From: Anaerolineae bacterium
GTDB taxonomy: Bacteria > Chloroflexota > Anaerolineae > Aggregatilineales > Aggregatilineaceae
NCBI GenBank assembly: GCA_034429275.1
Contig: DAOUFU010000013.1
Coordinates: 3,313 to 67,312 of the forward strand
Direction of reading: 5' to 3'
Length of the DNA: 64,000 nt
The notes beneath the pieces were generated by a model. The model was not told the origin of the DNA. It saw only the letters and a list, made by a program, of their open reading frames with translations, and ran no database searches. Positions 4,047-52,578 of this stretch are shown here, in pieces. Every line of letters begins with the position of its first letter. Positions within the stretch are counted from its first letter, which is position 1. Position numbers and translations under genes: made by a program.

Positions 4047-5210
4047 TTATTCGGCGCTTTCGGGCTGCGGCTGTTCAGGATAGTACGCGATCTCACCCTC
4101 GGCGTTGATCTGGTACAGGGCGTGAATGGTGCCCAGGCGGTCACCCTTCTCGTCGAAGCCCAGGATCGGGCCGCTCAGCCCCGGATAGTCCTTGAAGTCC
4201 TCGTGCAGATAGGCGGCCAGCTCTTCAGGATCGGTGCTCTCGGTCTCGGTGATGGCGTGCGCAATCACGTTGAAAGCTTCGGCGGCCAACATCCACCAGA
4301 CGCTGCTGGGCGGCTCGCCATAAGCCTCTTCAAAATCCTTGACGAACTGGATCGCTTCGGGATATTCCAGGTCCTTGGGCAGCGGCTCAGTGGTGATGTA
4401 AGTCCCAGCCGCAGCATCAACGCCCGCGATCTCGACCATTTCGGGGTTGTTGCTGGCATTGCCCATCATCCACTGGATATTCAGGCCAAGCTCGGCAGAC
4501 TGGCGCAGCAGCAAGCCGCCTTGGGCATGGTAGCCGGTGAAATAGACGACATCCAGGCCCGCGTTGCCGATATTGGTCAGAATGGGGCTGAAGTCCTGGT
4601 CATCCGGGTTGATGGCGTCGAAGAATGCCACTTCCAGCCCGGCTTCCTCAGCGTAGATTTTGGTCCAGTCGGCCAGGCCCTTGGCATAGGTCGAGTTATC
4701 GTGCAGAATGCCAATTTTCTTTGCGCCGAGCACCTGGTCCATCGCCATAACGGCAAACAGGGCCTGGCGATCATCGAGGAAGCACACGCGGAAAAACTGG
4801 GTGAATCCCTTTTGGGTCAGGCGCGTAGCGGTCGAAGAAGGCGTGATGTGCAGGATGCCTTCCTCAGCATAGATTTCAGAGGCCGGTTCGGTGGCGGTCG
4901 AGTTATACGCACCGATTACCGCGATCACGCCCGCATCCACCAGGCGGTCAGCTACCAGCGCGGACTGGGTGGGATCGCCCGCGTCATCTTCGATCACCAG
5001 CTCCACCGGACGTCCCAGCAGGCCGCCCGCTTCGTTCACCTGGTCCACCAGCAGTTGGACTGCTTTGACGAACCCCTGACCTTCATAGGCATAATCGCCG
5101 GTCATGGGACCTTGCAAGCCGATCTTGATCGGCTCACCTTCCTGGGCATTGACCAGCGGCCCCAATGCCATTGTCGCCAAAACCACAAGCACCAAAAGAC
5201 GTTTTATCAT
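4047..5210 (-). CDS. Periplasmic/extracytoplasmic branched-chain amino acid-binding protein (LivJ/LivK family, type I PBP)
   Basis: 387-aa ORF with an N-terminal signal peptide (MIKRLLVLVVLATMALGPLVNAQ) followed by IKIGLQGPMTGDYAYEGQG..., typical of Leu/Ile/Val-binding proteins. It is the first gene of the liv operon. Confidence 0.8.
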   Translation of the reverse strand: MIKRLLVLVVLATMALGPLVNAQEGEPIKIGLQGPMTGDYAYEGQGFVKAVQLLVDQVNEAGGLLGRPVELVIEDDAGDPTQSALVADRLVDAGVIAVIGAYNSTATEPASEIYAEEGILHITPSSTATRLTQKGFTQFFRVCFLDDRQALFAVMAMDQVLGAKKIGILHDNSTYAKGLADWTKIYAEEAGLEVAFFDAINPDDQDFSPILTNIGNAGLDVVYFTGYHAQGGLLLRQSAELGLNIQWMMGNASNNPEMVEIAGVDAAAGTYITTEPLPKDLEYPEAIQFVKDFEEAYGEPPSSVWWMLAAEAFNVIAHAITETESTDPEELAAYLHEDFKDYPGLSGPILGFDEKGDRLGTIHALYQINAEGEIAYYPEQPQPESAE

Positions 5211-5684
5211 CTCTGCCTCCCAGGATGAAAAACCAAAGGTACATGAACAATCACACGGCTGGCCTGGCAGTGTCGATCGCCCTGACCTGCTCGATCAACG
5301 CCCTCTTGAATACAAGCGGCCACTGGACGCCTGAAGTATTGACGGTCTCGGCTGAGCTGTCCTGGGCAATGAGCACAAACATCAACACCGCCTGATCGGA
5401 TCTATTAAATGATCAATCGCGTTGTTTGGCCTCCTTTCTTGGGTGGATGTCGGTCTTTGCCTTCTACCGCAGAAAGCCTCCCAACAGCAGTGGAGGAAAG
5501 AAGATTGGGAAGTCAGTAAGTTTTTTCGGTCATCAGCCGGACTGGCAATTACGATTAATTTACCGGATACGAACAAACACGTCAAACGGATTAACGACAG
5601 CGAGTCAACACCTTACCCGCTCGTGGCGCAGGCTAACGCACTGCATGCCCGGTGAAAAATCCCGGCTGCCACACTTTGAAAACG

Positions 5685-5733
5685 TTAAAGATCATTAAAC
5701 AAAGCATACTCGGACTTTAAACATTACTTACTA
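5685..5733 (+). promoter_or_regulatory. Candidate Pho-box-like array of phased direct repeats upstream of pstS
   Basis: TTAAAG (5685), TTAAAC (5695), TTAAAC (5717) and TTACTA (5728) recur at roughly 10-11 bp or 22 bp phasing in an AT-richer tract about 90-130 nt upstream of the pstS start. PhoB/PhoP-type boxes are phased direct repeats. Confidence 0.3.
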
Positions 5734-5818
5734 CCATCTTTATCTGTGCTGTCTACCATGTGCATCGTGTTTGAGGCAATGATGCCCATCCGTTGTGGAA
5801 CCTGATGAGGAGAACTCG

Positions 5819-6904
5819 ATGCAACACACCCGTTGGATGAAACTGTTGGCCCTGGCTCTTGTGCTGACGCTGGTCATTCCCCTCTCTGCTGTGCTGGCGC
5901 AGGGCGAAGAACCGATTGTCCTGCCCGAAGTTGACCCGCTGAGTGTGACCGGCGACATTGCCATCGCCGGCAGCTCGACCGTCGAGCCGATTACGGTTGC
6001 GATGGTGGCGCGCTTCAATGACGATGGCTTCTTTGGCAACATTACCGTGGCCGAAACCGGCACAGGCGCGGGGTTCGAGCGTTTCTGCAAAGAAGGATCG
6101 ATCGACATCGCCAATGCCAGCCGCCCGGTAAAAGACTCTGAGATCGAGAACTGCGCCGCCATTGGTCGCACCAACGTGCTGGAATTCCGTGTCGGCACAG
6201 ATGCCCTCACCATCGTGGTCAACAAGAACAACGACTTTGTGACCCAACTGAAGCGCAGTGAAGTCATCAAGATCTTCACCGGCGAAGTCACGAAGTGGAA
6301 CGAGATCAATCCCGACTGGCCCGCCGAGACAATCCAGCTCTTCACCCCCGGCACCGACAGCGGCACCTTCACCTTCTTTGGCGAAGCTGTGCTGGGTACC
6401 AAGGGAATCTATAAAGAAGAGCAGGCCCGCACCGAAGCGCTGCTGGCCGCCAACCCCACCGTTAGCGAGAATGACAACACCCTGGTGGAAGGCGTAATGG
6501 GCAGCCCTTATGCAATCGGGTACTTCGGCTTCGCCTACTACGTCGAGAACCGCGACAACCTCACCGCCATCGCGATTGCCGACGACGTGACCTACGATGA
6601 CGCCGATAATATCGTCGCCGTGCCCGAAGAAGAATGGGCCAATGCCGAGAAGCCGATCGAATACATTGAGCCTAACGAAGAAACCGCCGAATCAGGAACC
6701 TATATGCTGAGCCGCCCGCTGTTCATCTACAGCGACGCCAGTATCCTCAACGAGAAACCCCAGGTCGCTGCCTTCATCAACTACTACCTGATGAATGCCA
6801 ACGAAGTCGTGACCGAGGTGGGCTACTTCCCCGTCAGCGTTGAGGCCCTGAATGCGGCCAAGCAGGCCTGGCTCGACGCGATGGGCGTCGAAGCCGCCCA
6901 GTAA
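5819..6904 (+). CDS. pstS: Phosphate ABC transporter substrate-binding protein PstS
   Basis: The ATG at 5819 is preceded by GAGGAG (5807-5812). Signal peptide is MKLLALALVLTLVIPLSAVLAQG. PstS-like motifs are AGSSTVEPI, TGAGFERF and ANASRP. It is followed by pstCAB. Confidence 0.85.
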   Translation: MQHTRWMKLLALALVLTLVIPLSAVLAQGEEPIVLPEVDPLSVTGDIAIAGSSTVEPITVAMVARFNDDGFFGNITVAETGTGAGFERFCKEGSIDIANASRPVKDSEIENCAAIGRTNVLEFRVGTDALTIVVNKNNDFVTQLKRSEVIKIFTGEVTKWNEINPDWPAETIQLFTPGTDSGTFTFFGEAVLGTKGIYKEEQARTEALLAANPTVSENDNTLVEGVMGSPYAIGYFGFAYYVENRDNLTAIAIADDVTYDDADNIVAVPEEEWANAEKPIEYIEPNEETAESGTYMLSRPLFIYSDASILNEKPQVAAFINYYLMNANEVVTEVGYFPVSVEALNAAKQAWLDAMGVEAAQ

Positions 6905-18084: not shown

Positions 18085-18171
18085 GGAGGGGTGCCAGAGT
18101 GGTTGAATGGGGCGGTCTCGAAAACCGTTGTAGCGCTTGCGCTACCGTGGGTTCGAATCCCACCCCCTCCG
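18085..18171 (+). tRNA. tRNA-Ser (anticodon CGA), class II with long variable arm; CCA not encoded
   Basis: Acceptor GGAGGGG pairs with CCCCTCC. Anticodon arm is GCGGT-CTCGAAA-ACCGT (anticodon CGA). Variable stem is GTAGCGC-tt-GCGCTAC. T-arm is GTGGG-TTCGAAT-CCCAC. Confidence 0.9.
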
Positions 18172-22006: not shown

Positions 22007-22043
22007 ACAGGGCCGGGAGCGTATCCCGGCCCTGTCTTGTTGT
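22007..22043. terminator. Bidirectional terminator between convergent fasciclin and CaCA genes
   Basis: CAGGGCCGGGA-gcgta-TCCCGGCCCTG is followed by TCTTGTTGTT. Confidence 0.55.
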
Positions 22044-22066: not shown

Positions 22067-23065
22067 TCAGCCGATCAATCCCCGGTCGTAGATGAGAATC
22101 ATGCCTGCGAAATAGCCAATCGCAATCAGCAGCGAATCGATCTCCACCACCAGCACGCGCGCCTCGCGCGGGGCCACGTTGCGGAACAGGATTCCCAGCA
22201 GGGCCACATGGGTCAGCAGCAGGGCGATGGTCCCGGCCAGCATCATATCGGCGGAGACTGCCTCGAGGAAGCGCCCCTCGGTCATAAAAAAGTCGGTGAC
22301 GCCCAGCGTAAAAATGTTGAAGGTGTTGCTGCCGAACAGGTTGCCGGCAGCCATCTCGTAGGCTCCGATGCGCGCCGCAGCGATGGAGGTCACCACCTCC
22401 GGCAGCGAGGTGAGAATGGCGACCAGGGTGATTCCCACAAAACCGGCGCTCAACCCGGTTTCCTCGGCGATCTTGATCGCGCTGCGCACCATCACCGGGG
22501 TGATGGCGACCAGGGTGACAGTTGCCAACGCAAACCCGATCAGGGCATACCGCAGGCTGGGCACATCGTCCGCGATGGCTTCCGGCTCGGCAACGCTATC
22601 CGCAGAAGGGCCGCTGAACAACAGGCGGGTAACGACGACGTATCCCCCGATGAGCACCAGGCTGTCCAGCCCAACCCACCCGATCTGGACATCGACCTGC
22701 GCCACGATGAAAAACATCGCCAGGCCGGTGATTGCAACCGCCATCCCTGCGTTGAGCGCAAACACCACTCCCAACCGGCCCAGAAAGTGAGTTCGCACAT
22801 ACAGGATGCCCAGCACGGCCAGCAGAAACATATTGAACATGTTGCTGCCGAACACATTGCCAACTGTGAGGCCCGGCTCGCCCTGTTCGATGGCATTGAT
22901 CGAGGTCAGCAGCTCCGGCAGTGAAGTAGCCCCGGCCAGCAGCAGCGTGCCGACAAACATACCGCCCAACCGGGTGCGCAGAGCGATCACATCGCCGTAC
23001 CTGGCGAGCTGAATCGCGGCCACGATGATCACCAGGCCGCTGGCAAAAAACTGCACCCAGATCAT
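22067..23065 (-). CDS. Ca2+/cation antiporter (CaCA, YrbG/NCX-like sodium/calcium exchanger membrane protein)
   Basis: Start at the internal ATG 23065 (MIWVQFFASGLVIIVAAIQL...). Two alpha-repeat signatures are present: GATSLPELLTSINA and ILTSLPEVVTSIAAAR. There are about 10 TM helices. The upstream part of the ORF-track extension overlaps the PII-like gene. Confidence 0.8.
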   Translation of the reverse strand: MIWVQFFASGLVIIVAAIQLARYGDVIALRTRLGGMFVGTLLLAGATSLPELLTSINAIEQGEPGLTVGNVFGSNMFNMFLLAVLGILYVRTHFLGRLGVVFALNAGMAVAITGLAMFFIVAQVDVQIGWVGLDSLVLIGGYVVVTRLLFSGPSADSVAEPEAIADDVPSLRYALIGFALATVTLVAITPVMVRSAIKIAEETGLSAGFVGITLVAILTSLPEVVTSIAAARIGAYEMAAGNLFGSNTFNIFTLGVTDFFMTEGRFLEAVSADMMLAGTIALLLTHVALLGILFRNVAPREARVLVVEIDSLLIAIGYFAGMILIYDRGLIG

Positions 23066-23436
23066 AGGCGATCCTCGCTTTGTGCAGTGTGCGAGCGGCC
23101 CGGAACGCCCTTCACCAGCGAGAGTTCCCACGACGCCAGCACGCCGTTGTTCGGCCCGTCCAGGTCCCCGACAATCTGCTCGGCGGCCTGCAGGCACGCG
23201 CGAACCATTGCTTCGTCCGGCACAATGGCGAACAGGGTATAGTGCTCCATCTTCACCCGGCTGGTTTCGCTGAGCGCGCCGAACACATAGCGCGCGCCGA
23301 GCGGTCGCCGCAGGTGAGCGCGGTTCATGCCAGATGACTCGATAATCGTGACCCCCGTCACTCCCACCACGCGCCATGCATCAAGGACGGCCTCCAGGTA
23401 TTGGGGGTTGTCGAGCACAAACATCACCATTTGCAT
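23062..23436 (-). CDS. PII-like signalling protein (ferredoxin-like fold), translationally coupled to the CaCA gene
   Basis: 124 aa from ATG 23436 (MQMVMFVLDNPQYLEAVLDAWRVVGVTGVTIIESSGMNRAHLRR...HYTLFAIVPDEAMVRACLQAAEQIV...). The spacing follows a beta-alpha-beta-loop-beta-alpha-beta pattern like PII/SbtB-type proteins. Its stop overlaps the CaCA start (ATGA). Confidence 0.55.
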   Translation of the reverse strand: MQMVMFVLDNPQYLEAVLDAWRVVGVTGVTIIESSGMNRAHLRRPLGARYVFGALSETSRVKMEHYTLFAIVPDEAMVRACLQAAEQIVGDLDGPNNGVLASWELSLVKGVPGRSHTAQSEDRL

Positions 23437-23461
23437 GATCGGATTCCTTTCGGTGATTAGC

Positions 23462-25111
23462 TCAAGAGAGGATGGCGGCAATCCGCGCCTGTTCGTCCAG
23501 CGGTTTCCCCTTGCGATCCACTGCGCGCACCGCTCCCTCCAGGCTGCGGGTGCGCACACGTCCGGGGGCGTAGGGGTTATTCACCAACTGGGGCGCATCC
23601 ATCAACCCCAACGCGACCGCGCGCGCCAGCACCGCCGGGTCGCTGAACGGGTCTTCGGACTCCTGGCCCAGGCTGCGGATAGCCTCCAGCAGCAGATGAG
23701 TCTCGGCGATCAGTTCCTGTTTGCGACGCTGTACGGCAGGGTCGTGGGTCATGTCCGGGTTGCCGCGCAGGGCAGTATCGATCACTTCCTGAGTCATGAC
23801 CGCGCTTTCGATCACCTCGTCCGCGGTGACAGCGTGATCGGCCTCAGGATAGCCCACCACGTGGATGATGTGCGGCCTGACGGCCATTTGCAGCATGGTG
23901 CTTTGAGCCATGTGCGCCCGCGCCCGCTGAAGGTTCACCGGGTAGCTGAGCAGACCGGAGCGAGTCTGCCGCCAGACGCGGAAATCTGCATCGGCAAACC
24001 CCTCGCTGAGTTCGAGAATCGCCAGGCAGCGCGCCAGATCCATCGCGTTAGAAAGCTGGGGCGGACTTTGGAACATATAGGTCAGGATATAATCGCGCAC
24101 GCCGAAACGTTTGGCATTGTGCGCATACAGATAGGCCGAGGCACACACCACGACATCGGGCGCATCGCGCATCCCCCAGTGGTAGGATTCGTTGCCCTCG
24201 ACCGGGATATCGCGCTCGCCGTGCCAGCGCATGAGGTCCTGGTGCTCGCGGATTGAGTGTTCCAGCGGCGAAGGGCCGCGACCATCCATCGCATTGAACC
24301 AGAACAGCGAAGTCGCGCACCAGGCATTGTGAATGGTCCGCACCAGCATGTCAGCATAGCGCAGATGATCGGCGGTGCCGGAATAGGAACGCAGCAGGGG
24401 ATAGTTCCCCCGGCGGCTGGCCTGGTAGAGCCGCTCCAGGTCGTCTTCGGTGCGGAAGGGGACGCCGCCCGCACCCTTGCTGCGCGGGTCCTGCTGGGCG
24501 GGCAGGAAGAAGTTCTCTTGCGCGTCCTGATCGGCCCCCAGCGAGATCACATCGAGCACCGCCGCCTCGGCAATGCGGGCAATGCCTTCCACCGTCGGAT
24601 CGATGGTCTGGGCAGGGATGCCAAAGTGGTGACGCAGCAGCGGGTAGGGCGACTTCCACCGGATGCGGTCCACCGTGCGCTGCGGATAGGCGGAGGCGTC
24701 CCGCGGCTGTGCAGGCTCGCCGCGCAGCACAGCGCGCACCTGGTGCGGCGATTCGTCGCCCGAAAAGACCGCATCGAAGTATCCCAACTCGCGGGCGACC
24801 TCGGCGACAGGCGGAGTGCCGCCGAAAAACACGCGCTTGTGCCCCAGGATACCGGCGGCTTCGAGCATCCCACGCAGATCGGTGAGCAGGGTGCGGGCAT
24901 TTTCCGGGGTCAGGCGGTAGCTGATGCCGATCACGTCGGGATCGAACGCGACCACCGCATCCATGAAAGCTTCGAGGTCGGTGGCCGGGCCGGTGAAATA
25001 CGTTTCGCAGCCTTCTTGCTCGGCAGCCGCCAGGAAACGAGTCACTCCCGCGACATGTACGCAGTCGCCCAGGCTTCCGGCCAATACTCTTTCGGTCGTC
25101 GTATGAGCCAT
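23462..25111 (-). CDS. Fused B12-binding-domain (GlmS-like) plus GlmE-like mutase-type protein; non-canonical cobalamin motif
   Basis: The N-terminal ~130 aa (RVLAGSLGDCVHVAGVTRFL...DVIGISYRL...VFFGGTPP) mirrors the methylaspartate mutase S Rossmann domain. The remaining ~400 aa end with a GlmE-like tail (ARAVALGLMDAPQLVNNPYAPGRVRTRSLEGAVRAVDRKGKPL). The motif reads D-C-V-H-V-A-G rather than DxHxxG. Confidence 0.5.
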   Translation of the reverse strand: MAHTTTERVLAGSLGDCVHVAGVTRFLAAAEQEGCETYFTGPATDLEAFMDAVVAFDPDVIGISYRLTPENARTLLTDLRGMLEAAGILGHKRVFFGGTPPVAEVARELGYFDAVFSGDESPHQVRAVLRGEPAQPRDASAYPQRTVDRIRWKSPYPLLRHHFGIPAQTIDPTVEGIARIAEAAVLDVISLGADQDAQENFFLPAQQDPRSKGAGGVPFRTEDDLERLYQASRRGNYPLLRSYSGTADHLRYADMLVRTIHNAWCATSLFWFNAMDGRGPSPLEHSIREHQDLMRWHGERDIPVEGNESYHWGMRDAPDVVVCASAYLYAHNAKRFGVRDYILTYMFQSPPQLSNAMDLARCLAILELSEGFADADFRVWRQTRSGLLSYPVNLQRARAHMAQSTMLQMAVRPHIIHVVGYPEADHAVTADEVIESAVMTQEVIDTALRGNPDMTHDPAVQRRKQELIAETHLLLEAIRSLGQESEDPFSDPAVLARAVALGLMDAPQLVNNPYAPGRVRTRSLEGAVRAVDRKGKPLDEQARIAAILS

Positions 25112-25123
25112 GATGCTTTCTCC

Positions 25124-26245
25124 TTACAGGCCGTCAAGCTCAACTTCGCCTGTCTCGGCCAACTGGGTGATCTCCGTCACCGACAGCCCCTCCAGCCCCA
25201 TCCGCTTGAGGGTGCGCCCGCGATGGCGATAGTCAGTGCCGTGCATGATGCAGGCCAGCTGGATCATGGCCTCCATACCCAGCACGTCCACCCCAAAGCG
25301 CCGCCCTAATTCCGCGATGGGCACCAGGCTGTAGGGGACATCCTCAAAGATGTAGCGATGACGTAGCACCCGCGGCGCGGTGATTCCCCGGTAGCCGGGA
25401 TTGGCGTGGATGGCTTCTTCCAGCGTGTCGCCATGCGCCGAATAGGCCCGTGCCAGCCATTCTTTGGCGGTTTGCGCGCGGATGCCTAGAGCAGTCGCCA
25501 CCGTCACGCGCTCGCGATCCAACCGTTCGAGGATGCGGCCCACAGTGGGGGTGACCCCATCGATATAGAACTCAAAATCGCCGCCGGTCGCTTCGATCCA
25601 TCCGGCATTGAGCAGAGTCAGCGCCGGATGAAAGATCGCCCCCATGTTGTTGAGACTGGTATACAGCACGTTTTTGGCGGCGATGAACTGTGGATAGACC
25701 TCCTGCACCAGGTCCAGCACTTCCTGTGTGCGAATAGCAGGCAGCGCGGCCAGGGGCAGCGTGTTCTTTCGTCGGAAGATGTGCGCTTCAGCCGGGCCAA
25801 CGCTGCGGCTGGCGAACAAAAAGGTCTCGGCTTCCGCGATGGTGACATCGGCGGTGCAGCCGCCCTCGCGCAAGACTTCGCGGAACTCGAACGCGCCGCC
25901 TGTGCGTCCAGGGTTCAGCACAACGACCTGCCCATCCTTGAGGAAGGGCGCGCACGCCAGCGCTACATCGCGATGGGCCGAAGCGGGAACGACCACCATG
26001 ATCAGTTGCACGCCGTCGATGGCCGCTTCCACGTCGCTCGTCACACATTTGAGATGGCCGAACTCCATCCGCCCGTCTTCAAAAGTGATCTCGATGCCTT
26101 TGCGCACGGCGATAGTTTCGATGTTTTCGTAGGTGCGGTTATATAACCGGACCAGGTAGCCGTGCACTGCCAGATCGGCGGCCATCGCTTTGCCGCCATG
26201 ACCTGCGCCGATCACACAAATCTCAAGTTCTTTGCCATAAGACAT
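25124..26245 (-). CDS. NAD(P)-dependent opine (octopine/nopaline) dehydrogenase family protein
   Basis: The ATG at 26245 has a GGGGGAAGG RBS. Rossmann motif is ICVIGAGHGGKAMAADLA. C-terminal family motifs are IFHPALTLLNAGWIE and YIFEDVPYSLVPIAELG. Confidence 0.7.
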   Translation of the reverse strand: MSYGKELEICVIGAGHGGKAMAADLAVHGYLVRLYNRTYENIETIAVRKGIEITFEDGRMEFGHLKCVTSDVEAAIDGVQLIMVVVPASAHRDVALACAPFLKDGQVVVLNPGRTGGAFEFREVLREGGCTADVTIAEAETFLFASRSVGPAEAHIFRRKNTLPLAALPAIRTQEVLDLVQEVYPQFIAAKNVLYTSLNNMGAIFHPALTLLNAGWIEATGGDFEFYIDGVTPTVGRILERLDRERVTVATALGIRAQTAKEWLARAYSAHGDTLEEAIHANPGYRGITAPRVLRHRYIFEDVPYSLVPIAELGRRFGVDVLGMEAMIQLACIMHGTDYRHRGRTLKRMGLEGLSVTEITQLAETGEVELDGL

Positions 26246-26440
26246 TGACCTTCCCCCATTTCTTGCGAGATGATTCTTCCGGCAGGTAAGGGTGGAAGAA
26301 CAGCCTGATCGTGCCCCAAAACGGCCCCAAAACAACTGAGGCCCAGGACCGTTGAGCCGCTACGATTATAGAGCACCTTGCCCGACCGCCCCATAAACCG
26401 TGATGCCGCGTATGAGGCGGCAGTAATGGAGCAACGGGAC

Positions 26441-26478
26441 CAGAAAAAACAATCGCCCCGGCAGAGCACCGGGGCGAT
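26441..26478 (-). terminator. Rho-independent terminator after the repeat-protein gene
   Basis: On the minus strand, TCGCCCCGG-tgctctg-CCGGGGCGA is followed by TTGTTTTTTCTGG. It lies about 70 nt after the stop at 26549. Confidence 0.65.
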
Positions 26479-26548: not shown

Positions 26549-27166
26549 TTACTCGTTGGTCGGCTCGCTGGAGGTGACACCGGGAGTCTCGTCGCCGTCG
26601 ATGCTGATGCGCTCGGCACGCGATTTGATCTCCTCATCGGCGTTCTCTTTCTTCACCGATCGTTTGACTTTTTCGATCGCAGCGTTCACGTGATCGCCGA
26701 AACGCTGCCCGATGTCCTTCCAATCGGCCTTTTCTTTGTCCACACCGACCAAAGCGCCGATCCAGCCGCGCACATCATGCTCGATCTTTGAACCGATGTC
26801 ACTCCACGACGCCTCGGCATTCTCGCCGCCCGCCTTCACCAAACGGGCCACAGTGTGCCGGGTGCGCGCTTCCATCTTGGAGGTGATATTCGACCAGTCG
26901 GCATTCTCTTCGGCACCGACCCAGCTACCGATGGCAGCGCGAGTCTTGGAGTCCATCTTGCTGCCGATGGTTGACCAATCGGCATTCTCTTCCGCGCCGA
27001 CCCACCCGCCGATCATGCGGCGCAGGTTGGTATCGATCCGGGTCGCCAGGTCGGTCAGGCTTCCCTTATCAGGATCGTCGGCCCATTCGTTGACAGTTTC
27101 TTTGATCTGATCATCCAGGTGAGCACCCATCTCTTCGGGAGTGGGGGTGGTATGATTATCGGACAT
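26549..27166 (-). CDS. Acidic tandem-repeat protein of unknown function (approx. 27-aa 'IG.WVGAEENADWS.I.SKM' repeats)
   Basis: 205-aa ORF with a CAGGAGAAGG RBS. It has 4-5 degenerate repeats, two nearly identical at DNA level, and no signal peptide or TM helix. Confidence 0.7.
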   Translation of the reverse strand: MSDNHTTPTPEEMGAHLDDQIKETVNEWADDPDKGSLTDLATRIDTNLRRMIGGWVGAEENADWSTIGSKMDSKTRAAIGSWVGAEENADWSNITSKMEARTRHTVARLVKAGGENAEASWSDIGSKIEHDVRGWIGALVGVDKEKADWKDIGQRFGDHVNAAIEKVKRSVKKENADEEIKSRAERISIDGDETPGVTSSEPTNE

Positions 27167-29296: not shown

Positions 29297-29389
29297 TGGC
29301 GGGGAGGACAGGATTCGAACCTGCGAACCGGTTTAAGGCCGGTTAACCGCTTAGCAGGCGGCCCCAATCGTCCACTCTGGCACCTCCCC
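29297..29389 (-). tRNA. tRNA-Ser (anticodon GCU), class II, CCA encoded
   Basis: The reverse complement gives GGGGAGG...CCTCCCC-G-CCA. Anticodon arm is GCCGC-CTGCTAA-GCGGT (GCU). It has a long variable arm and T-loop GGTTCGAATCC. Confidence 0.9.
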
Positions 29390-29412: not shown

Positions 29413-29502
29413 TGGCGGAGGGAGAGGGATTCGAACCCCCGGAGACGTTACCGCCTCAGTGGTTTTCAAGACCACCGCCATAAACCACTCGGCCATCCCT
29501 CC
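29413..29502 (-). tRNA. tRNA-Ser (anticodon UGA), class II, CCA encoded
   Basis: The reverse complement gives GGAGGGA...TCCCTCC-G-CCA. Anticodon arm is GTGGT-CTTGAAA-ACCAC (UGA). It has a long variable arm and T-loop GGTTCGAATCC. Confidence 0.9.
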
Positions 29503-29635: not shown

Positions 29636-32600
29636 TTATAGATCGCGGTCTAGCTCGCCGGGGGCAGGCACCGGCAGTGTGATAGTAAAGGTGCTGCCTC
29701 GCCCTGGCGCGCTCTCTACATCAATGCGCCCGTCGTGCAGTTCCACGATTTCGCGCGTGATGGCCAACCCCAGCCCGGTACCGGAGGCAATTTTGGCGGC
29801 TTCCTCCGTGCGGAAGAACGGATCGAAGACGTACACCTGTTCTTCAGGCGGGATGCCGATACCGGTATCCTTCACCCACAACCGGACGGAATCGCCATCG
29901 CGTGTCAGCCCCACCTGCACTATCCCTCCATCAGGCGTATATTTCACCGCGTTCCCGAACAGGTTGCGCAGCGAGCGCATCAACTGGGCGGAGTCGCCAT
30001 AGACGTACTGCACACCGGCCAGCCCGGTCGCATCGATCACCAGGTCGCGCTCGCGGGTGACGGCCAGCATCGACTGGATCAGGTCGCGGCTGTGAGCTGC
30101 CAGGTCGAACCATTCCTTGTTGGGCCTGGCCCGGCGTGCATCGAAGCGCGACAGTTCCAGAATGTCCTCGACCAGCTCCCTGAGCACATTGGCCTGGCCG
30201 TAAATTTGCCGCACGATCCGCAAGCGTTCTCCGTCGTCGAAACGATCGTAATATTTGGCCAGGCTGCTGATCTCCAGCAGAATCGCAGAAAGCGGGGTGC
30301 GCAGCTCGTGCGAGACGGTGGAGACAAACCGCCCTTTGAGATCGTCCAATTCCCGGTAGTAGGTCACATCGTGCAACACAATTACCGTGCCCGTCACTTC
30401 GCCGGCGGGATCGTGTATGATGGCGCTGCGCGCCTGGATCGCGCGGCGGGGGATGCGCTGAATCACACTACAGACCTCATGCCGATCGTTGGCCCCATCG
30501 GCATCGATCAGCCAGCATGGCCAGTAGAGGTCTTCACGAGATGCATACGGGCAGTCCCCCTCAATGCATTCCATCGGCAGGCCGGTTGCAGGGTTGACCA
30601 GCGCCTCGATCGGCAGCGAAAACTCGACCGATTCCGGCGATCCCAACCGCGCGATGCGCCGCTGGAGCCAGTCCCACAACAGGCTGGCCGCACGCTGTGC
30701 CCCACCGCGCTCGGCAGGATAAAAGCGGAATAATGCCTCGCCCGCCGGGTTGATGACGATCGGCGTCTGGACCTGATCGAACACCAGAATTCCATCCGCC
30801 GCGCTCTGCAAAATGGCCCCGATGCGCGCACTGCTGTGCACCGCCTCGGCGTACAGTTGCGCATTGGCCAGCGCGACGCCGACCTGCCGCCCAATGGCAT
30901 CTACCATGCGCATTTCTTCATTGCCCCAAATGCGCGGCTGGTCGTGGACCAACGTGATCACCCCCATGATTTGTCCCTGCCGCCAAATAGGAACATCCAG
31001 CATGGCGGCAATTCCAATCTCACGGGCCAGTTCCGGAGGCGAAGGCGGTGAGCCATCTTGAACCAAGGTGTTGGGAGTCAGGCTGATCATGCCGTCAAGC
31101 ATAGATTGGGTCAGGCCGCGCTGGGCAGCGACACTGAGCGATTGCGAGGACGCATCCAGCAGGAAGATCGCCCCACCGGTGATACCCAAATGCTCGACCA
31201 GGGTTGCCAGCACGCCGTCGAGCATCGCCCCGGTATCGAGCGAACTGCTCAGTGTCTCGGCGACGGCATTACGCACGCTCAAATCGGCGGTGCGCTCGTT
31301 GACACGCCGCTCCATCTGGTCGGCGTGGCGCTGAATCTGAGCGTAAAGCTGGCGATTCTCAATCGCCGCCGCCACACGCTCGGCAAAGACATTCAACACA
31401 TGGCGATCCTGGGCGGTGAAGGCATCCAACTCGATGCTTTGCAGGTCCAGCGCACCGATCGATTCGCCGCCGGAGGACTTGAGCGGGATCACCAGTTCGG
31501 AGGCTGTGCGGGGGTCTCCCACAATATACCGGTCATCGAGCCGCACGTCCGGCGCGTAGACAGGTTCGCCGGTGCGCACTGCCGATGCCACCAGGCCGGG
31601 TCCGTCCAATTGTAATGCATGCGGCGACTGAATCTCGTAATCACCTGCCCGGCTGATAGTGTGAAGATTTCCCGTCTCCGGATCGAGCAGCAGCAGGCCA
31701 CAAGCCACTCGTTTGAAGGTGCCCACCACCGTTTGCACGATCTGGTTACTCAGGTCGCGCATGGTGGTGACGGCGGGCAGCGCCGAAAACAGGAACGACG
31801 TTCCGCGGTAGAGCACCGCCAGCTCATCCACTGAGCGGCGCACTTCATCGTAGAGATGTGCGTTGTTGAGTGCCACAGCCGCCTGTTCGGCGAACATCTG
31901 GAGCACTTCGCTCTGCTTATCGGAGAATGTATGAGGTTGAGCGCCGTCAAGCACGATCAAGCCGATTGTCCGCTCGCCGATGCGGATTGGACAGGACAGG
32001 ACCGAGCGGATCCAGGCTGTCTCGGGCATCTCCACCCAATCCGGATCAACCAGTGTGTCGCCGATACAAGTCGGTTGACCGGCCTCCAACATGCGTACCA
32101 GCGAAGGCCACGCATTGAGCGGAATCTCCTGCCTATACATCCATTCGGTGGTACCGTAGGCTTCGTACCCACGCGCGCGTGCCACGCGCACCTGGTTACC
32201 TTCGATTAGCATGACATTGGCGGCATCGTGAGGCACCACCCGCTCGATATTGGCCAGGATCAGGTCGAGCACAGTATCGGGGTCAAGCGTGCGATTGATC
32301 GCGGTGAGGGTTTCGCGCAGGGTTTCGGCCAGCGTGCGCTGCTCACGCTCGGCAGCATAGAGCTGGGCGTTACGCAGCGCGATAGCCGCCTGGTCGGCAA
32401 AAGCTTTGAGCCGCCCGGCGTGCTGCGGTCCAAAAAAGCCCGGCGTTGCGCTGTCCAGGTTCAGCATCCCAACCGTTTGCCCCTGGATGCGAATGGGCGC
32501 AGAAGCAAACGAGCGAATCCATTTCGTTTCGGGGAACTCGTGCCACCAGCTGGCAGTAGTCACATCGCTGACGATGAGCGCCTCGTCCTGTTCCATCCGC

Positions 32601-35155
32601 TCGCGCAGCATGTAATAGGGATCGTCCAGGGAAATCACGACCTGGCGCATGTAATCGTCCAGGCCGCGTCCAGAATAGCCCCGGAAGCCGATCACGCGCG
32701 CCAACTGCGCCTCGTGGTTGATGATCATGATATTAGCCGCATCGTGCGGCACGACACGGCCAAGCATAACGAGCAGGCGATCGATCACCAATGCCGGGTC
32801 AAGGGTGCTGGTGAGCGTCGTCGCCACATCGCGCAGAGCTTCGGCCAATGCCCGCTGCTCGCGCTCGGCAGACTGTGTGCGTTCGCGCAGGATGGCCGCG
32901 CCCAACGCATTGGACGCGCTGCGCAGCGCCTCGATTTCGACAGGCAGCCACCGCCGCTCTCGCTCGCAATCCACCAACCCCCAAAAGCCCCACCATTCGT
33001 TTTCGACAAAGATCGGCATCAAGGCGACGGAAAGAGCATCTACCTCCAGCAGCAGATCGCGCGCCGAACCCGACATCTCGCGCAGCACGCCATACACAGG
33101 CTGCCCGGCAGCCAGCCGGGTGCCCCATGAATCCTCGGTCAGGAAAAGCGGGAGGTTCCGATAGCGCGACCGCTCCACTGGTTGCTTGGAAGACGTCCAC
33201 CAGTGACGCAGGCTGCTGACCATCTTGCCTTGTGGACCAGGATGATTCGCGCACAGGAAGGAATAACTCATCGCAGTCGCTTCGCCCAGGGCCTTGATCG
33301 ACTCGCGCAGTGCGGAATCCAGGTCATCAGCGCGCACCAGGCGCTCGCTCATATCCGCCAGCGCGTCGAGGATAGCATCGCGACGACGCAGAGCCTCATC
33401 CATGTGCCGACGTTCGGTAATATCGCGAACGACCGCCAGCACATGTTCGGGACCACTGGCCACCATGCGCACTTCAAAAAAGTATTCGCCGTCAGGGAGA
33501 TGGAGTGGATATTCCCAGACTTGCATCTCGCCTGCCAGCGCCTTTTCGATCCGTGCCAGAAAATCTTGCCGCGCGTGAGCCGAGACCAGGTCGCCGATTG
33601 GAGTGCCCAAAATTTCCTCTGGGGAGGCCGACAGACGACCCTCGGCCCAATTCGACTTGACATTGACAATAGTGCCTTGCCGGTCGAACTGCAGCATAAG
33701 GTCGGGGATCGCCGCCAAGACAGCACGGTTTTGTTCCTCACTGGCGCGCAGCGCGTTCTCGGTAGCTTTGCGCTCGGTGATGTCGCGCACGATATACAAC
33801 ACTTCATCCGGTGCGCTGACCACTGCGCGCCCCTCAAAATCGCGCGTGTGCCCGGAAAAATCGAGCTGGTATTCGAGCACCTGCATCGTGCCGGTATCCA
33901 GCGCACGCTCTATCGCCGCACGTAGCCGCTGCGCATAGGCTTCTGGAAGCTCGTCCTCAACCTTGCGACCAATGATCGTGTGCGCATCCCCTACCAGGAC
34001 ATCTTCTTTGCCTTCGGCCTGCACATCCACCACGATGCCGGCCCGGTTGAAGCAAAACAACAGGTCGGGAAGGGCACGCAGCAGCGCTCGCTGACGGGCT
34101 TCGCTGCGGCGCAGGGCGTCTTCGGCGGTCTGCCGCTCGGTGACATCGTAAGCCACGATCTGGATGGCCGGCTGTTGCTCGTAGACGAAGGGGATGATTA
34201 CACTTTCCACCTCAATGCTGGTCCCATCGAGCCGAACGATCTTGTGCTGCATGGGTGGCATATTCTCGCCCTGCATCACCAGGCCAATACGCTGCTCGGC
34301 GGTGGCCAGGTCATCGGGTGCGACAATGCGGTCCACAGTCAGGCCGATCACCTCATCCATTGAGTGCCCGCCCAGCAACCGTACGCCCGCCGGGTTCACA
34401 TAGACCACACGGCCTTCCTGCATCACCGCGATAGTCACCGGCGCATATTCAATCAAGCGCCGGTACCGCTCACGCGCTTCGATCAACTCGGTCTGGCGCG
34501 CCTGATCAATCTGTCCCAACTGGTGCGCCACCAGGATGACCAGGCTAGACACGCCAACCAGGTAGCCGATCCACAAATCGCCTGCGGTGACACCCTCGAA
34601 TACAAAGGGAACCGGCAGCAGCACCAAGACATTGAACCCCGCCAGCGCTGCCGTCCACCGCCACGAAAACCACATACTGCACAACAGAACGGGCACAATC
34701 AGGTACACTTGCAGCTTCAGATCGTCCGAGTCGCTGATGGGAAGACTGATCCCCAGCAGGCCAAGATCGAGCACGAGCACGATCAGCGCGGCGACCCGCC
34801 TGTAATGGTAGGTGCGGCTGTACCGCCAGCCGAACAACAGCGCGATCACCAGCCCGGCAGTGATCAGAAAATCGTCGTCTTCCAGCGCCGATTGACCATC
34901 GATGACCAGGCTGCCCCCCAGCCCCAAAGTCAGGCCGATGCCTGCCAGCGCCATCAGCATCGCGGCCAACAAGCGGGCGCTGCGGCGCTCGCGCTGCGGC
35001 ACGGAATCATCGGGCCGGGTCAGCCCAAGCACCAGTCGGACCATGCTTTTCCAGGGATGCGAAACCAGTGCTCGCATAGGGTTCTCCCTGTCACCTACTT
35101 CACCCACTCTCGTTCTGATTCTATTGTCTCCGATTTTGATGGGATGGATAGTCAA
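29636..35155 (-). CDS. Giant hybrid-architecture sensor histidine kinase (N-terminal TM block, multiple PAS and GAF domains, HisKA plus HATPase_c); no adjacent response regulator
   Basis: 1839-aa ORF with repeated PAS-type (DITERK/DVTERQ/DITERR endings) and GAF-type modules. H-box is SHELRTPLSAI, N-box is NLFGNAVKYT, G1 is DTGIGIP and G2 is GTGLGLAI. The true start among several Met codons is uncertain. Confidence 0.85.
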   Translation of the reverse strand: MTIHPIKIGDNRIRTRVGEVGDRENPMRALVSHPWKSMVRLVLGLTRPDDSVPQRERRSARLLAAMLMALAGIGLTLGLGGSLVIDGQSALEDDDFLITAGLVIALLFGWRYSRTYHYRRVAALIVLVLDLGLLGISLPISDSDDLKLQVYLIVPVLLCSMWFSWRWTAALAGFNVLVLLPVPFVFEGVTAGDLWIGYLVGVSSLVILVAHQLGQIDQARQTELIEARERYRRLIEYAPVTIAVMQEGRVVYVNPAGVRLLGGHSMDEVIGLTVDRIVAPDDLATAEQRIGLVMQGENMPPMQHKIVRLDGTSIEVESVIIPFVYEQQPAIQIVAYDVTERQTAEDALRRSEARQRALLRALPDLLFCFNRAGIVVDVQAEGKEDVLVGDAHTIIGRKVEDELPEAYAQRLRAAIERALDTGTMQVLEYQLDFSGHTRDFEGRAVVSAPDEVLYIVRDITERKATENALRASEEQNRAVLAAIPDLMLQFDRQGTIVNVKSNWAEGRLSASPEEILGTPIGDLVSAHARQDFLARIEKALAGEMQVWEYPLHLPDGEYFFEVRMVASGPEHVLAVVRDITERRHMDEALRRRDAILDALADMSERLVRADDLDSALRESIKALGEATAMSYSFLCANHPGPQGKMVSSLRHWWTSSKQPVERSRYRNLPLFLTEDSWGTRLAAGQPVYGVLREMSGSARDLLLEVDALSVALMPIFVENEWWGFWGLVDCERERRWLPVEIEALRSASNALGAAILRERTQSAEREQRALAEALRDVATTLTSTLDPALVIDRLLVMLGRVVPHDAANIMIINHEAQLARVIGFRGYSGRGLDDYMRQVVISLDDPYYMLRERMEQDEALIVSDVTTASWWHEFPETKWIRSFASAPIRIQGQTVGMLNLDSATPGFFGPQHAGRLKAFADQAAIALRNAQLYAAEREQRTLAETLRETLTAINRTLDPDTVLDLILANIERVVPHDAANVMLIEGNQVRVARARGYEAYGTTEWMYRQEIPLNAWPSLVRMLEAGQPTCIGDTLVDPDWVEMPETAWIRSVLSCPIRIGERTIGLIVLDGAQPHTFSDKQSEVLQMFAEQAAVALNNAHLYDEVRRSVDELAVLYRGTSFLFSALPAVTTMRDLSNQIVQTVVGTFKRVACGLLLLDPETGNLHTISRAGDYEIQSPHALQLDGPGLVASAVRTGEPVYAPDVRLDDRYIVGDPRTASELVIPLKSSGGESIGALDLQSIELDAFTAQDRHVLNVFAERVAAAIENRQLYAQIQRHADQMERRVNERTADLSVRNAVAETLSSSLDTGAMLDGVLATLVEHLGITGGAIFLLDASSQSLSVAAQRGLTQSMLDGMISLTPNTLVQDGSPPSPPELAREIGIAAMLDVPIWRQGQIMGVITLVHDQPRIWGNEEMRMVDAIGRQVGVALANAQLYAEAVHSSARIGAILQSAADGILVFDQVQTPIVINPAGEALFRFYPAERGGAQRAASLLWDWLQRRIARLGSPESVEFSLPIEALVNPATGLPMECIEGDCPYASREDLYWPCWLIDADGANDRHEVCSVIQRIPRRAIQARSAIIHDPAGEVTGTVIVLHDVTYYRELDDLKGRFVSTVSHELRTPLSAILLEISSLAKYYDRFDDGERLRIVRQIYGQANVLRELVEDILELSRFDARRARPNKEWFDLAAHSRDLIQSMLAVTRERDLVIDATGLAGVQYVYGDSAQLMRSLRNLFGNAVKYTPDGGIVQVGLTRDGDSVRLWVKDTGIGIPPEEQVYVFDPFFRTEEAAKIASGTGLGLAITREIVELHDGRIDVESAPGRGSTFTITLPVPAPGELDRDL

Positions 35156-51900: not shown

Positions 51901-52578
51901 GACATCATCGCACAGCGCGCCGTGCCGGTCATGATCAGCACGAACCCGGCAGCCGCGCTGCACGCCGAAGCCGTGATCGCGCCGCTGCGTGACGATTCCC
52001 TGCTGCTCAAGGCGCGTGGCGACGGCGAATCTGCCCTGGCCGCCGGGGAAGATTACGTGCTGCTGGCTTATCTGCCCGGCGAGGCGGTTGGTGTGCGCTC
52101 GCTGGCCCAGCCGCCGAGCGGAGCGGAAGCCGTGCACCCGGCCTTCAAGACAGACCTGCGAGGCGAAGAAACGGCGCTGACCGTGCATAACATGGCAACA
52201 GATGTCGCCCTGATCGTCGTCGTGAGCGAAGACTCTGCCGGGGTGCGGACCTGGGCGGAACAGCTCGAAAGTGTGCCCACGCTCAAAGTGGCGCTGGTGA
52301 CCGCCGCCACCGAACCGCTCGTCGAGCCATACGTCAATGCAAAGGGATATGTCGGGTACCTGGCCGGGGTGCGCGATACCTACAGCTACAACGCGGCACG
52401 AAACAGCACCACGCGCGAGCCATATGTTGTACCCGAGGGCATCACGTTTGACGTGCCCGACCCCGAAAGCGCGCGCTGGCACAGCATGGCCCTGGGCGCG
52501 GCGGCGGCAGCAGCCGTGATTGCACTGGGCACAATGGTGAATCTGATCCGGGCTTTAGGACGGAGGCGCAGCCGGTGA
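48949..52578 (+). CDS. 1209-aa acidic Pro/Trp-motif repeat protein with two C-terminal TM helices bracketing an approx. 270-aa domain
   Basis: AGGAAG RBS. The first ~900 residues are low-complexity (D/E/P/A-rich) with PPWQxHP x3 and at least 8 copies of a [hydrophobic]-P-D-W-[LF] motif. TM1 is LVILLAMLAALVVPFV and TM2 is ALGAAAAAAVIALGTMVNLI, followed by an RRRSR tail. Confidence 0.75.
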   Translation: MPDDPNLFDDADFWSGETPGSTNSAGGARPPWQSHPGDPSAMTGARPAELPPWQQHPASSTPARSAPMQPPPWQAHPGPTPTPPPGGQPGEPAWDEIGWAVDQPDADRAASAAGADELPQGLTGMLPWRSETQSAPAGPPSSADDSAWLESFGQTGYDSSSSLPQDDGDLSWLTGDSSKPVEPAAETGADGLLWPDDDLFAGLEADSTPPAETETAPSSGVIRRLARPQDSVPPAVEAAQPQADLTVEDLFDSAFGDAFEDILGESASGTPADAGTAGEGDADLWPGDEAAAEKSFAEEQPPAAGDLPDWLRTEATPPSAPLAEAWGTETAEADTSGEEETLPAWAEDGASFAAQSTPTNLSYDEWEQAQIAREQEAAKTEEDRLLEQVPDWFAQPDQPAAPAPDSEQPAGPEFVPDWFTGLEAQNLEAAPDWFQKIDYTADPLAAPPSEPEPPPVHDAVMPDWLRPDGLLELAGQEESPAESEQPAADEWAVDEPLPDEIDFLNRLGGASSGRGKQPPAPPPAPPAAAPGDEEWRRAFEPSPEPEFAQAPPPVGDFVERFDPFAPVEPAPPPAPEAAAFDLGPGTLDWLQDLSAEDLSEPEPEPVFPAEQPAAPEPEPAEDLLLEEVKVDSQAIDSLLGISDSSMALVVPQEQPVAAPEEITSFEWPEEDPWLALEKAEAAADERFAGAEVFPEEQAAEDLLAAEIFEADRPTTPERPATAAKAAPAPPPAEEPPVAPREAARPQWLEEMRPADLPVTLIAGGARLDMIQHSLDDLPDGLRSLHERLSDEQSFAEATRSVQPPPESGPLAGIVDSLSAVPAALPTIRREAIVEGLVISPEEQRRIERLQAVLDLLAAEEEEAEEAPVEGFGFSSTAPFDFGGEEVDEEAAAVAEISAKSRPRRPHRYKFDRLVILLAMLAALVVPFVTDVVHFAADPPPLAGDQAAVASAVDALLPGDIALVALEYGPTAAGELDGLAEAVLRDIIAQRAVPVMISTNPAAALHAEAVIAPLRDDSLLLKARGDGESALAAGEDYVLLAYLPGEAVGVRSLAQPPSGAEAVHPAFKTDLRGEETALTVHNMATDVALIVVVSEDSAGVRTWAEQLESVPTLKVALVTAATEPLVEPYVNAKGYVGYLAGVRDTYSYNAARNSTTREPYVVPEGITFDVPDPESARWHSMALGAAAAAAVIALGTMVNLIRALGRRRSR

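Follow-up and report, generated by a model that had tools for sequence, protein, structure and literature searches.

A B12 mutase-like protein paired with an opine dehydrogenase, and a PII-like/CaCA exchanger pair, in a four-gene run of an Anaerolineae bacterium

Introduction

Why should an opine dehydrogenase, a cobalamin-dependent mutase-like protein, a small PII-like protein and a cation exchanger of the CaCA family be encoded side by side? This question is raised by positions 22067-26245 of a 64,000-nucleotide stretch of DNA from an Anaerolineae bacterium (assembly GCA_034429275.1, contig DAOUFU010000013.1, positions 3,313 to 67,312 of the forward strand), called the window below, where these four genes lie in a row on the minus strand. 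The original prediction, made from the sequence alone, took them as a single system in which the transporter and the PII-like sensor may link an unusual amino-acid metabolism to ion or energy status. The reading favored here, with a probability of roughly 60%, is that the run consists of two cassettes of two genes each, independent of each other although this organism probably transcribes them together. The one is composed of a dehydrogenase resembling N-(1-D-carboxyethyl)-L-norvaline dehydrogenase (CENDH) and an adenosylcobalamin (AdoCbl) isomerase, and the other of the PII-like protein and the CaCA exchanger, with no demonstrated link of the latter cassette to the former.

The dehydrogenase and mutase pair has a short literature. 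A novel B12-dependent family with no function assigned was predicted in 11 genomes of Clostridia, Lactobacillales, Chloroflexi, and Thermotogae, always adjoining an octopine/nopaline dehydrogenase and with D-Ala:D-Ala ligase and asparagine synthase nearby, and experiments were called for (Zhang, Rodionov, Gelfand & Gladyshev 2009, BMC Genomics 10:78, PMC2667541). No functional characterization of the mutase family beyond that prediction was found in a full-text literature search, subscription-only papers being outside its scope. No characterized pathway with this gene set was known to the original prediction, and none was found in the literature, but the gene pair itself had been flagged in 2009.

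Fold of the mutase-like protein

The 549-aa protein carries an N-terminal B12-binding domain (PF02310; residues 8-118, E 1.6e-11) and a C-terminal match to Met_asp_mut_E (PF06368; residues 358-541, E 1.4e-4) that scores 20.9 bits, below the gathering cutoff of 26.6. Among 57 family members compared with Pfam, B12-binding was present in 43 and Met_asp_mut_E in 27 (E<=1e-3; best 2.5e-9), and no Pfam family beyond these two was matched across the 57. Sequence-only searches of the PDB, with the single protein or with the 57-sequence profile, recovered the B12 domain alone and never GlmE, the epsilon chain of glutamate mutase, so the assignment of the barrel had to come from structure prediction and Foldseek.

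The AlphaFold2 (AF2) model built on the 57-sequence alignment has a mean predicted local distance difference test (pLDDT) score of 94.4 and consists of a Rossmann domain, eight beta/alpha repeats, and a helical C-terminal region. Its best Foldseek matches in the PDB are chains of GlmE (6h9e_B, E 2.6e-16; 1cb7_B, E 6.6e-16), with a template modeling (TM) score of ~0.65 on the target over about 440 aligned columns and an identity of 15-16%. These are followed by ornithine 4,5-aminomutase, lysine 5,6-aminomutase, methylmalonyl-CoA mutase, and 2-hydroxyisobutyryl-CoA mutase; the top 28 PDB matches are all AdoCbl isomerases. As judged from this model, the protein joins a B12-binding Rossmann domain and a GlmE-type TIM barrel in one chain, and the barrel region (residues 145-549) is the predicted site of the substrate and the adenosyl group. 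The fused GlmS/GlmE-like protein of the original prediction was therefore right at the level of fold, as Pfam, the AF2 model, and the first rank of GlmE in Foldseek agree. The comparison of its C-terminal body by profile and by structure, proposed there as a check, came out divided, with a strong structural match to GlmE and sequence-level matches that are weak or below threshold.

Pyridoxal phosphate (PLP)-dependent aminomutases hold PLP on a conserved Lys as an internal aldimine. The 57-sequence family alignment contains no invariant or nearly invariant Lys, and the sole near-invariant Lys in an alignment of the distant subfamilies described below (K408 of the representative P0172) is absent from the window protein. 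A PLP-dependent AdoCbl aminomutase of the lysine 5,6- or ornithine 4,5-type was rejected for want of a conserved Lys.

A Cys-His variant of the cobalamin motif

The Asp of the DxHxxG motif tunes the His-Co bond in known cobalamin enzymes. The window protein encodes the string D-C-V-H-V-A-G just where the original prediction had read it. It was taken there as a DxxHxxG variant with the His shifted by one residue, and this interpretation is contradicted by the alignments. In hidden Markov model alignments to solved B12 domains (matches to 2yxb, 4jgi, and 4r3u_C), His19 falls on the ligand His, Gly22 stays in register, and Cys17 falls on the canonical Asp, all with no gaps. In the gap-free stretch of the family alignment, position 19 is His and position 22 is Gly in 56/57 sequences each. 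Position 17 is Cys in 43/57, including the window protein, and Asp in 13/57, all of them from distant 600-636-aa subfamilies that read D-[PAV]-H-T-x-G. The upstream position 16, which is Asp in the window protein, is variable (D, N, S, Q, E, P, and others). Because His19 and Gly22 align gap-free in the canonical register, the His is unshifted, and the motif, as aligned, is CxHxxG, in which the Asp of the His-Asp dyad has been replaced by a conserved Cys in the Chloroflexota-type subfamily.

The remaining B12 fingerprint is kept as G22-x41-S64-Y65-R66-L67-x29-G97-G98, of which S64, Y65, R66, L67, and G98 are invariant or nearly so. His19 is accordingly aligned as the predicted lower cobalt ligand. 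In its conserved His and Gly with the SxL and GG elements behind them, and in the predicted barrel that would cap the corrin, the protein agrees with class I (base-off/His-on) AdoCbl-dependent isomerases; it departs from them in the His-Asp dyad. To our knowledge, no characterized cobalamin enzyme has Cys at the canonical Asp position.

Comparison of the predicted active site with GlmE

For a residue-level comparison, the GlmE sequence was verified against 1cb7_B, and the single sequence as well as a 25-sequence GlmE alignment were aligned to the family profile with hhalign. The GlmE homologs in that alignment are all at least 78% identical, so the GlmE profile is shallow. The probability was 6-7% against the single sequence and 21% against the profile (E 1e-3; 354 columns, residues 158-540 against GlmE 62-440); the register was the same in both runs and agrees with the Pfam match to PF06368.

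In this low-confidence profile alignment, several GlmE residues have identical counterparts: Gly68 corresponds to Gly164, Asp89 to Asp187, Gly151-Thr152-x-Asp154 to Gly245-Thr246-x-Asp248, Asn170 to Asn273, and Glu330, which presumably binds the adenosyl ribose, to the nearly invariant Glu423. The residues that we take to bind and activate glutamate, namely the arginine claw of Arg66, Arg100, and Arg149 together with Glu171, are aligned differently. Arg66 corresponds to His162, with Arg160 two residues before it, Arg100 to Gln198, Arg149 to the invariant Tyr243, and Glu171 to a variable residue (Ala274 in the window protein) with the invariant Asp276 two residues after it. TIM-barrel active sites sit at or just after the strand ends, and the residues invariant throughout the superfamily (R160, G164, S190, G216, Y243, D276, E305, D319, and H417) are mostly at or just after barrel strands in the AF2 model. 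The provisional conclusion is that a conserved radical machinery is combined with a different substrate pocket, so that the protein would not be a glutamate mutase sensu stricto. Since two or three of the three carboxylate-binding arginines of GlmE are replaced, the substrate is probably not free L-glutamate.

The opine dehydrogenase partner in Chloroflexota

The 373-aa protein matches Octopine_DH (PF02317, E 2.9e-49) and NAD_Gly3P_dh_N (E 1.8e-9) in Pfam, and its GxGxxG Rossmann motif reads GAGHGG (residues 12-17). It aligns over its full length to CENDH (1bg6_A, E 1.5e-79) with about 45% identity. The equivalents of CENDH His202, Arg292, and Asp297, which we take from the literature on CENDH and octopine dehydrogenase to be the catalytic residues, are all identical. 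Homology and these residues indicate that it is a genuine opine-dehydrogenase-type enzyme and not merely a Rossmann protein.

At least 563 stretches with mutase relatives were found in a scan of one genome per GTDB species, and the neighborhood counts given here come from the best 80 loci, all from Chloroflexota (Anaerolineae, Ardenticatenia, Thermoflexales, Roseiflexus, Chloroflexus, and Anaerolinea thermophila). Sixty loci were informative in having at least 1.3 kb on both sides of the mutase gene. In 55 of these 60, an opine dehydrogenase gene lies within 3 kb of the mutase gene; the two share a strand in every case, with the dehydrogenase upstream at 38 loci and downstream at 17. Mutase and dehydrogenase diverge from the window copies in a correlated manner (r = 0.84, n = 63). 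The conservation of this pair, suggested in the original prediction as something to check, is thus borne out, and it extends to the distant subfamilies. Given such strong co-conservation, a shared unusual amino-acid or N-carboxyalkyl metabolite is a reasonable reading.

In Chloroflexota, the pair mostly stands with no ligase or sugar genes beside it. An AsnB-type amidotransferase occurs as an insert or neighbor at 13 loci, MutL at 8, and a D-glutamate-cyclase-like gene at one. For instance, in the closest relatives, L001 (AsnB at 4500-5984) and L002, with a mutase 86% identical, an AsnB-type glutamine amidotransferase lies between the dehydrogenase and the mutase. In a Thermoflexales metagenome-assembled genome (MAG), the interval between the pair (L060:3403-5846) encodes two proteins, one resembling a D-glutamate cyclase (PF14336, E 1.4e-70) and the other AsnB, the latter with a weak match to a glutaminase domain. 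No AsnB-, ATP-grasp-, or D-glutamate-cyclase-like gene is present in the 64-kb window. Two of the five loci lacking an adjacent opine dehydrogenase (L035:7740-8411 and L038:3468-4139) encode, after the mutase, a 223-aa protein starting with MAENKIPVVILGAGGYA that looks like a NeuD/PglD-type sugar acyltransferase.

Association with MutL/GlmL

MutL/GlmL is known as an accessory gene of glutamate mutase operons. At 8 of the 80 loci, a gene of this family (PF13941; e.g., E 5e-166 at L029) directly precedes the mutase, and mutase-MutL fusions occur in three representatives of 50%-identity clusters (P0160, P0174, and P0177). Such adjacency and fusion support AdoCbl radical chemistry. The window has a MutL/GlmL-family gene of its own (PF13941, E 3.1e-57, covering 1-445 of 450), located ~28 kb from the mutase gene. 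Its 609-aa product is a possible reactivase or chaperone of the mutase, an association that is inferred only, and it could serve something else. It is flanked by genes for a 225-aa membrane protein and a 369-aa protein with weak matches to the NqrA/RnfC barrel-sandwich domain.

Distant subfamilies in glycan clusters

The mutase family is large, with at least 6,900 clusters at 90% identity. An exhaustive search of 50%-identity cluster representatives, made without a profile, reached 753 clusters at E<=1e-3, of which 173 are still matched at E<=1e-30. The 600-636-aa distant subfamilies, which carry the canonical DxHxxG, are 25-30% identical to the window mutase, and their members in Rikenellaceae and Clostridiales MAGs are annotated as hypothetical or cobalamin-binding proteins.

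The neighborhoods of these subfamilies were taken from 80 loci of a metagenome scan with the distant alignment, and the neighbors were clustered and annotated with Pfam. An Octopine_DH protein of ~417 aa is found at 52/80 loci, followed by an L-amino-acid-ligase (LAL)-type ATP-grasp (36/80), a "Sugar-transfer associated" ATP-grasp (ATPgrasp_ST; 25/80), a DegT/DnrJ/EryC1 aminotransferase (23/80), a Bac_transf initiating transferase (14/80), an aldo/keto reductase (AKR; 12/80), an RmlB-like dehydratase (11/80), and a glycosyltransferase (8/80); RmlA-like genes are also among the neighbors. The order Bac_transf - ATP-grasp - mutase - ATPgrasp_ST - AKR - Octopine_DH - DegT recurs (L099-L151, e.g., L120:1-15794). 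These loci, from gut and rumen metagenomes (Rikenellaceae and Clostridiales MAGs), lie within polysaccharide clusters. One 50%-cluster representative, P0130, has an ATP-grasp domain fused to the mutase, and another, P0128, possibly a Peptidase_M15-like domain. Since the Octopine_DH partner persists at a mutase identity of 25-30%, the pairing is ancient and, in these phyla, embedded in glycan assembly.

The PII-like protein and the CaCA exchanger

The 124-aa protein does not reach the Pfam threshold for P-II (PF00543; E 0.054, 14.3 bits against a cutoff of 25), and its best matches in a profile search of the PDB are PII chains with E 0.03-0.3. Its AF2 model (pLDDT 80) has strands at residues 2-8, 30-34, 65-72, and 99-104, helices at 11-23 and 75-89, and a long predicted T-loop of low confidence at about residues 37-63, and its top 50 Foldseek PDB matches are all PII, GlnK, GlnB, or PotN proteins. 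The predicted structure confirms a PII fold with a ferredoxin-like core and a long T-loop. The family is small, with 88 clusters, and a precomputed PF00543 match exists for 1/88 relatives. The 332-aa product of the adjoining gene matches PF01699 (E 3.6e-36) with two Na_Ca_ex repeats and TIGR00367 (E 2.8e-30, below cutoff), and its alpha-repeat signatures G(S/T)SxPE read ATSLPE and LTSLPE. Both proteins were thus correctly named as PII-like and CaCA in the original prediction.

The two genes accompany the mutase in only 4 of the 80 related Chloroflexota loci: L001 and L002 have the gene order of the window with AsnB inserted, and L067 and L072 have PII-like and CaCA in a different order. Seven independent contexts were also sampled from the PII side. 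In 6/7, the PII-like gene is followed by a 329-333-aa Na_Ca_ex gene with a 1-4-nt overlap, among unrelated neighbors and with no mutase or opine dehydrogenase within 5 kb; in the seventh, the PII-like gene stands alone. The coupled PII-like/Na_Ca_ex (YrbG-type) pair recurs across Anaerolineae (L167, L169, L171, L173, L174, and L175). Pairs of this kind without a mutase show that PII-like and CaCA form a cassette of their own, and by analogy with GlnK-AmtB, SbtB-SbtA, and PotN, the PII-like protein presumably regulates the exchanger. The single four-gene system of the original prediction is not upheld by these counts.

Layout of the locus

The features of the window are collected in the table. 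For the four genes, the open reading frame (ORF) listing gives the coordinates that were also called independently on this contig in three Joint Genome Institute (JGI) metagenomes. The short gaps and the ATGA overlap described originally are confirmed: 12 nt separate the dehydrogenase from the mutase and 25 nt the mutase from the PII-like gene, and the ATG of the CaCA gene overlaps the TGA of the PII-like gene. There is no convincing terminator inside the run, and in this organism, the four genes plausibly form one transcript.

Two bounding terminators had been proposed. The upstream hairpin terminates the neighboring gene, as was stated in that proposal, and marks the upstream boundary of the unit. 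The downstream hairpin is also present, but its T-rich tail is on the plus strand, with only a weak T-run on the minus strand, so that it mainly serves to terminate the convergent fasciclin gene. The TATAAT hexamer is a possible -10 element, for which no convincing -35 was found and which the promoter scan did not list. No riboswitch or other structured RNA was found upstream, and Rfam at gathering thresholds gave only three tRNAs in the window. A horizontal-transfer island was rejected on a uniform GC content of ~0.63.

Table. Positions of the four-gene run, its domains and signals, and other features of the window
Feature	Position	Strand	Remarks
Opine dehydrogenase gene (CENDH-type, NAD(P)-dependent)	25124-26245	minus	373 aa
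B12/GlmE-like mutase gene	23462-25111	minus	549 aa
Cobalamin-binding Rossmann domain, residues 1-130	24722-25111	minus	PF02310; profile matches to solved B12 domains
Motif D16-C17-V18-H19-V20-A21-G22	25046-25066	minus	Profile and 57-sequence alignments
Predicted GlmE-type (beta/alpha)8 barrel with C-terminal helical/small beta region, residues 145-549	23462-24679	minus	AF2, Foldseek, PF06368, hhalign
PII-like gene	23062-23436	minus	124 aa
CaCA exchanger gene (YrbG-like, cation/Ca2+)	22067-23065	minus	332 aa
Intrinsic-terminator-like hairpin with T-run	26452-26478	minus	12-bp GC-rich stem, 8 GC pairs, tail TGTTTTTTCT
GC-rich hairpin, 12 bp	22007-22035		Unstranded; between convergent CaCA (minus) and fasciclin (plus) genes; downstream boundary
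TATAAT hexamer, perfect	26365-26370	minus	~120 nt upstream of opine dehydrogenase start; read directly
Upstream neighbor gene	26549-27166	minus	205 aa; no Pfam match; internal repeats of type GxWVGAEENADWSxIxSKM
tRNA gene, long	18085-18171	plus	Rfam; the three are 87-90 nt
tRNA gene, long	29300-29389	minus	Rfam; in tandem with the next, directly downstream of the histidine kinase gene
tRNA gene, long	29416-29502	minus	Rfam
Large sensor histidine kinase gene	29636-35155	minus	PAS and many GAF domains; 1839 aa by ORF, 1813 aa by gene call
Gene for 1209-aa protein	48949-52578	plus	N-terminal two-thirds low-complexity, Pro/Glu/Ala-rich
Gene for 225-aa membrane protein	52575-53252		Flanks the MutL/GlmL-family gene
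MutL/GlmL-family gene	53257-55086	plus	609 aa
Gene for 369-aa protein	55086-56195		Flanks the MutL/GlmL-family gene

Discussion

In the reaction scheme suggested by homology and context, the dehydrogenase would reversibly join an amino acid and a 2-oxo acid to an N-(carboxyalkyl) amino acid with NAD(P)H, and the mutase, by a radical 1,2-rearrangement, would rebuild the carbon skeleton either of this polycarboxylate or of the amino acid from which it is made, so that a branched dicarboxylic or imino acid would result. In other phyla, this product would probably be amide-linked to an amino sugar of a cell-surface glycan. Several points weigh against two independent cassettes with an AdoCbl isomerase in the first. 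The sequence link to GlmE is weak, with PF06368 below its gathering score and an hhalign probability of 21%, and the active-site mapping shares the low confidence of that alignment. The DxHxxG motif has lost its canonical Asp, which may alter how the cofactor is handled. Cobalamin binding, cofactor form, and substrate are all inferred. Finally, PII-like and CaCA genes stand beside the mutase in two arrangements in distant lineages (L001/L002 and L067/L072), which leaves room for a loose functional link to the mutase cassette.

A fused bona fide glutamate mutase, interconverting L-glutamate and (2S,3S)-3-methylaspartate, would be served by an opine dehydrogenase that uses or makes 3-methylaspartate, for instance, by condensation with pyruvate or by oxidative deamination. 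It would account for GlmE as the best structural match, PF06368 as the sole non-B12 Pfam match, MutL/GlmL adjacent or fused in relatives, and the D-glutamate-cyclase-like gene at L060, but the identity to GlmE is 15-16%, the arginine claw and Glu171 are aligned with His162, Gln198, the invariant Tyr243, and a variable residue, though in a low-confidence alignment, and no methylaspartase gene was seen in the mutase neighborhoods; this explanation is doubtful. Alternatively, the mutase would act during glycan assembly as a tailoring enzyme on an amino acid bound to its carrier, e.g., in an aminoacyl-amino-sugar nucleotide, and the Chloroflexota copy would serve a cell-envelope polymer. The loss of the claw would suit a substrate in which one carboxylate is tied up in an amide. 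The recurring order in which Bac_transf, LAL-type ATP-grasp, ATPgrasp_ST, DegT, and glycosyltransferase genes surround the distant subfamilies, together with the ATP-grasp fusion and the possible Peptidase_M15-like fusion, points the same way. However, the Chloroflexota pair usually lacks ligase and sugar genes, known GlmE-type enzymes act on small free acids, and a carrier-bound substrate is an extrapolation from context, which makes this proposal about as doubtful as a glutamate mutase.

The idea that all four genes are one system, in which PII-like and CaCA would tie the ion or energy status to how the product is made or exported, is suggested by the shared strand, the short gaps, the lack of a convincing internal terminator, and the presence of both genes beside the mutase cassette at L001/L002 and, in another order, at L067/L072. 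It is judged quite improbable, as these are the 4/80 loci with such an association, 6/7 PII-side contexts have unrelated neighbors and no mutase, and CaCA proteins are established carriers of cations, not of organic acids. Least probable is a non-catalytic B12 domain, be it a corrinoid carrier or methyl-transfer protein, a B12 or light sensor, or a relic inactivated by the loss of Asp. The best sequence-only PDB matches of the N-terminal domain do include methyltransferase corrinoid proteins (1y80, 4jgi, and 7xcn), and the canonical Asp is absent, but the barrel matches AdoCbl isomerases and not methyltransferase or sensor modules, the MutL association supports an isomerase, and the residue aligned to GlmE Glu330 is the nearly invariant Glu423. 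In addition, the identity of the mutase across Chloroflexota classes (57-86%) and the invariant polar residues at barrel strand ends argue for an active enzyme. A corrinoid methyltransferase or sensor as such was rejected by the barrel fold and the MutL links.

Two cassettes, the first with an AdoCbl isomerase, hence remain the preferred reading. A further-reaching hypothesis, advanced tentatively and well short of even odds, is that the mutase represents a new AdoCbl isomerase reaction class that rearranges the carbon skeleton of the opine made by its CENDH-type partner, or of a carrier-bound amino acid, by means of an unprecedented Cys-His dyad where Asp-His is otherwise universal, its branched product being a glycan building block in Bacteroidota and Clostridia and an envelope component or solute in most Chloroflexota.

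New AdoCbl-dependent isomerase reactions are rarely found, and the known ones number only about a dozen. The present family is large and occurs in Chloroflexota as well as in gut and rumen Bacteroidota and Clostridia. Knowing its substrate would extend the list of B12-dependent reactions by one, account for part of the cobamide need of Chloroflexota and gut anaerobes, and perhaps uncover branched or opine-type glycan substituents of a new class. The obligate opine dehydrogenase partner offers a practical route to that substrate, and a CxHxxG mutase would test how a Cys replacing the Asp of the His-Asp dyad affects the chemistry of the Co-C bond.

Comparison with known systems

Glutamate mutase (EC 5.4.99.1; GlmS/GlmE, also MutS/MutE, of Clostridium cochlearium and C. 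tetanomorphum; 1CB7, 1CCW, 1I9C, and 6H9E) shares with the window mutase the B12 Rossmann domain, the same predicted barrel fold, PF06368 in 27/57 relatives, the association with MutL/GlmL, and Glu330, kept as Glu423. It differs in having separate sigma and epsilon subunits, whereas the window mutase is a single chain with an N-terminal B12 domain and ~15% identity; in having DxHxxG and the arginine claw with Glu171, where the window mutase has CxHxxG and His, Gln, Tyr, and a variable residue at the aligned positions; and in its glmS-glmL-glmE operon with a methylaspartase neighbor, in place of which the window mutase family has an opine dehydrogenase as its obligate neighbor. Ornithine 4,5- and lysine 5,6-aminomutases (3KOW, 1XRS, and 8T0V) are likewise AdoCbl enzymes, and MutL-like genes occur in their operons, too. 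They are the second-best structural matches (E 1e-10 to 1e-9) but need PLP on a conserved Lys, while the window mutase family has no invariant Lys.

CENDH (EC 1.5.1.28, Arthrobacter sp. 1C, 1BG6) resembles the window dehydrogenase in its Rossmann GxGxxG motif, the Octopine_DH helical domain, and the His/Arg/Asp residues; the window enzyme has a B12 mutase as its genetic partner, and no such partner is known for CENDH. Similarly, GlnK-AmtB, SbtB-SbtA, and PotN resemble the second cassette in the PII fold and the flexible T-loop, and the PII-like gene of the window is translationally coupled to a transporter gene; it differs in scoring below the Pfam P-II threshold and in having a CaCA exchanger as its partner.

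The precedent is the family predicted in 2009, which has in common with the window mutase a distant N-terminal B12-binding domain, a predicted TIM barrel, an opine dehydrogenase neighbor, and its occurrence in Chloroflexi, and for which neither a fold assignment nor a motif analysis was given (PMC2667541). The present analysis adds the predicted GlmE-type fold, the Cys-for-Asp motif, the links to MutL, the glycan context of the distant subfamilies, and the size of the family.

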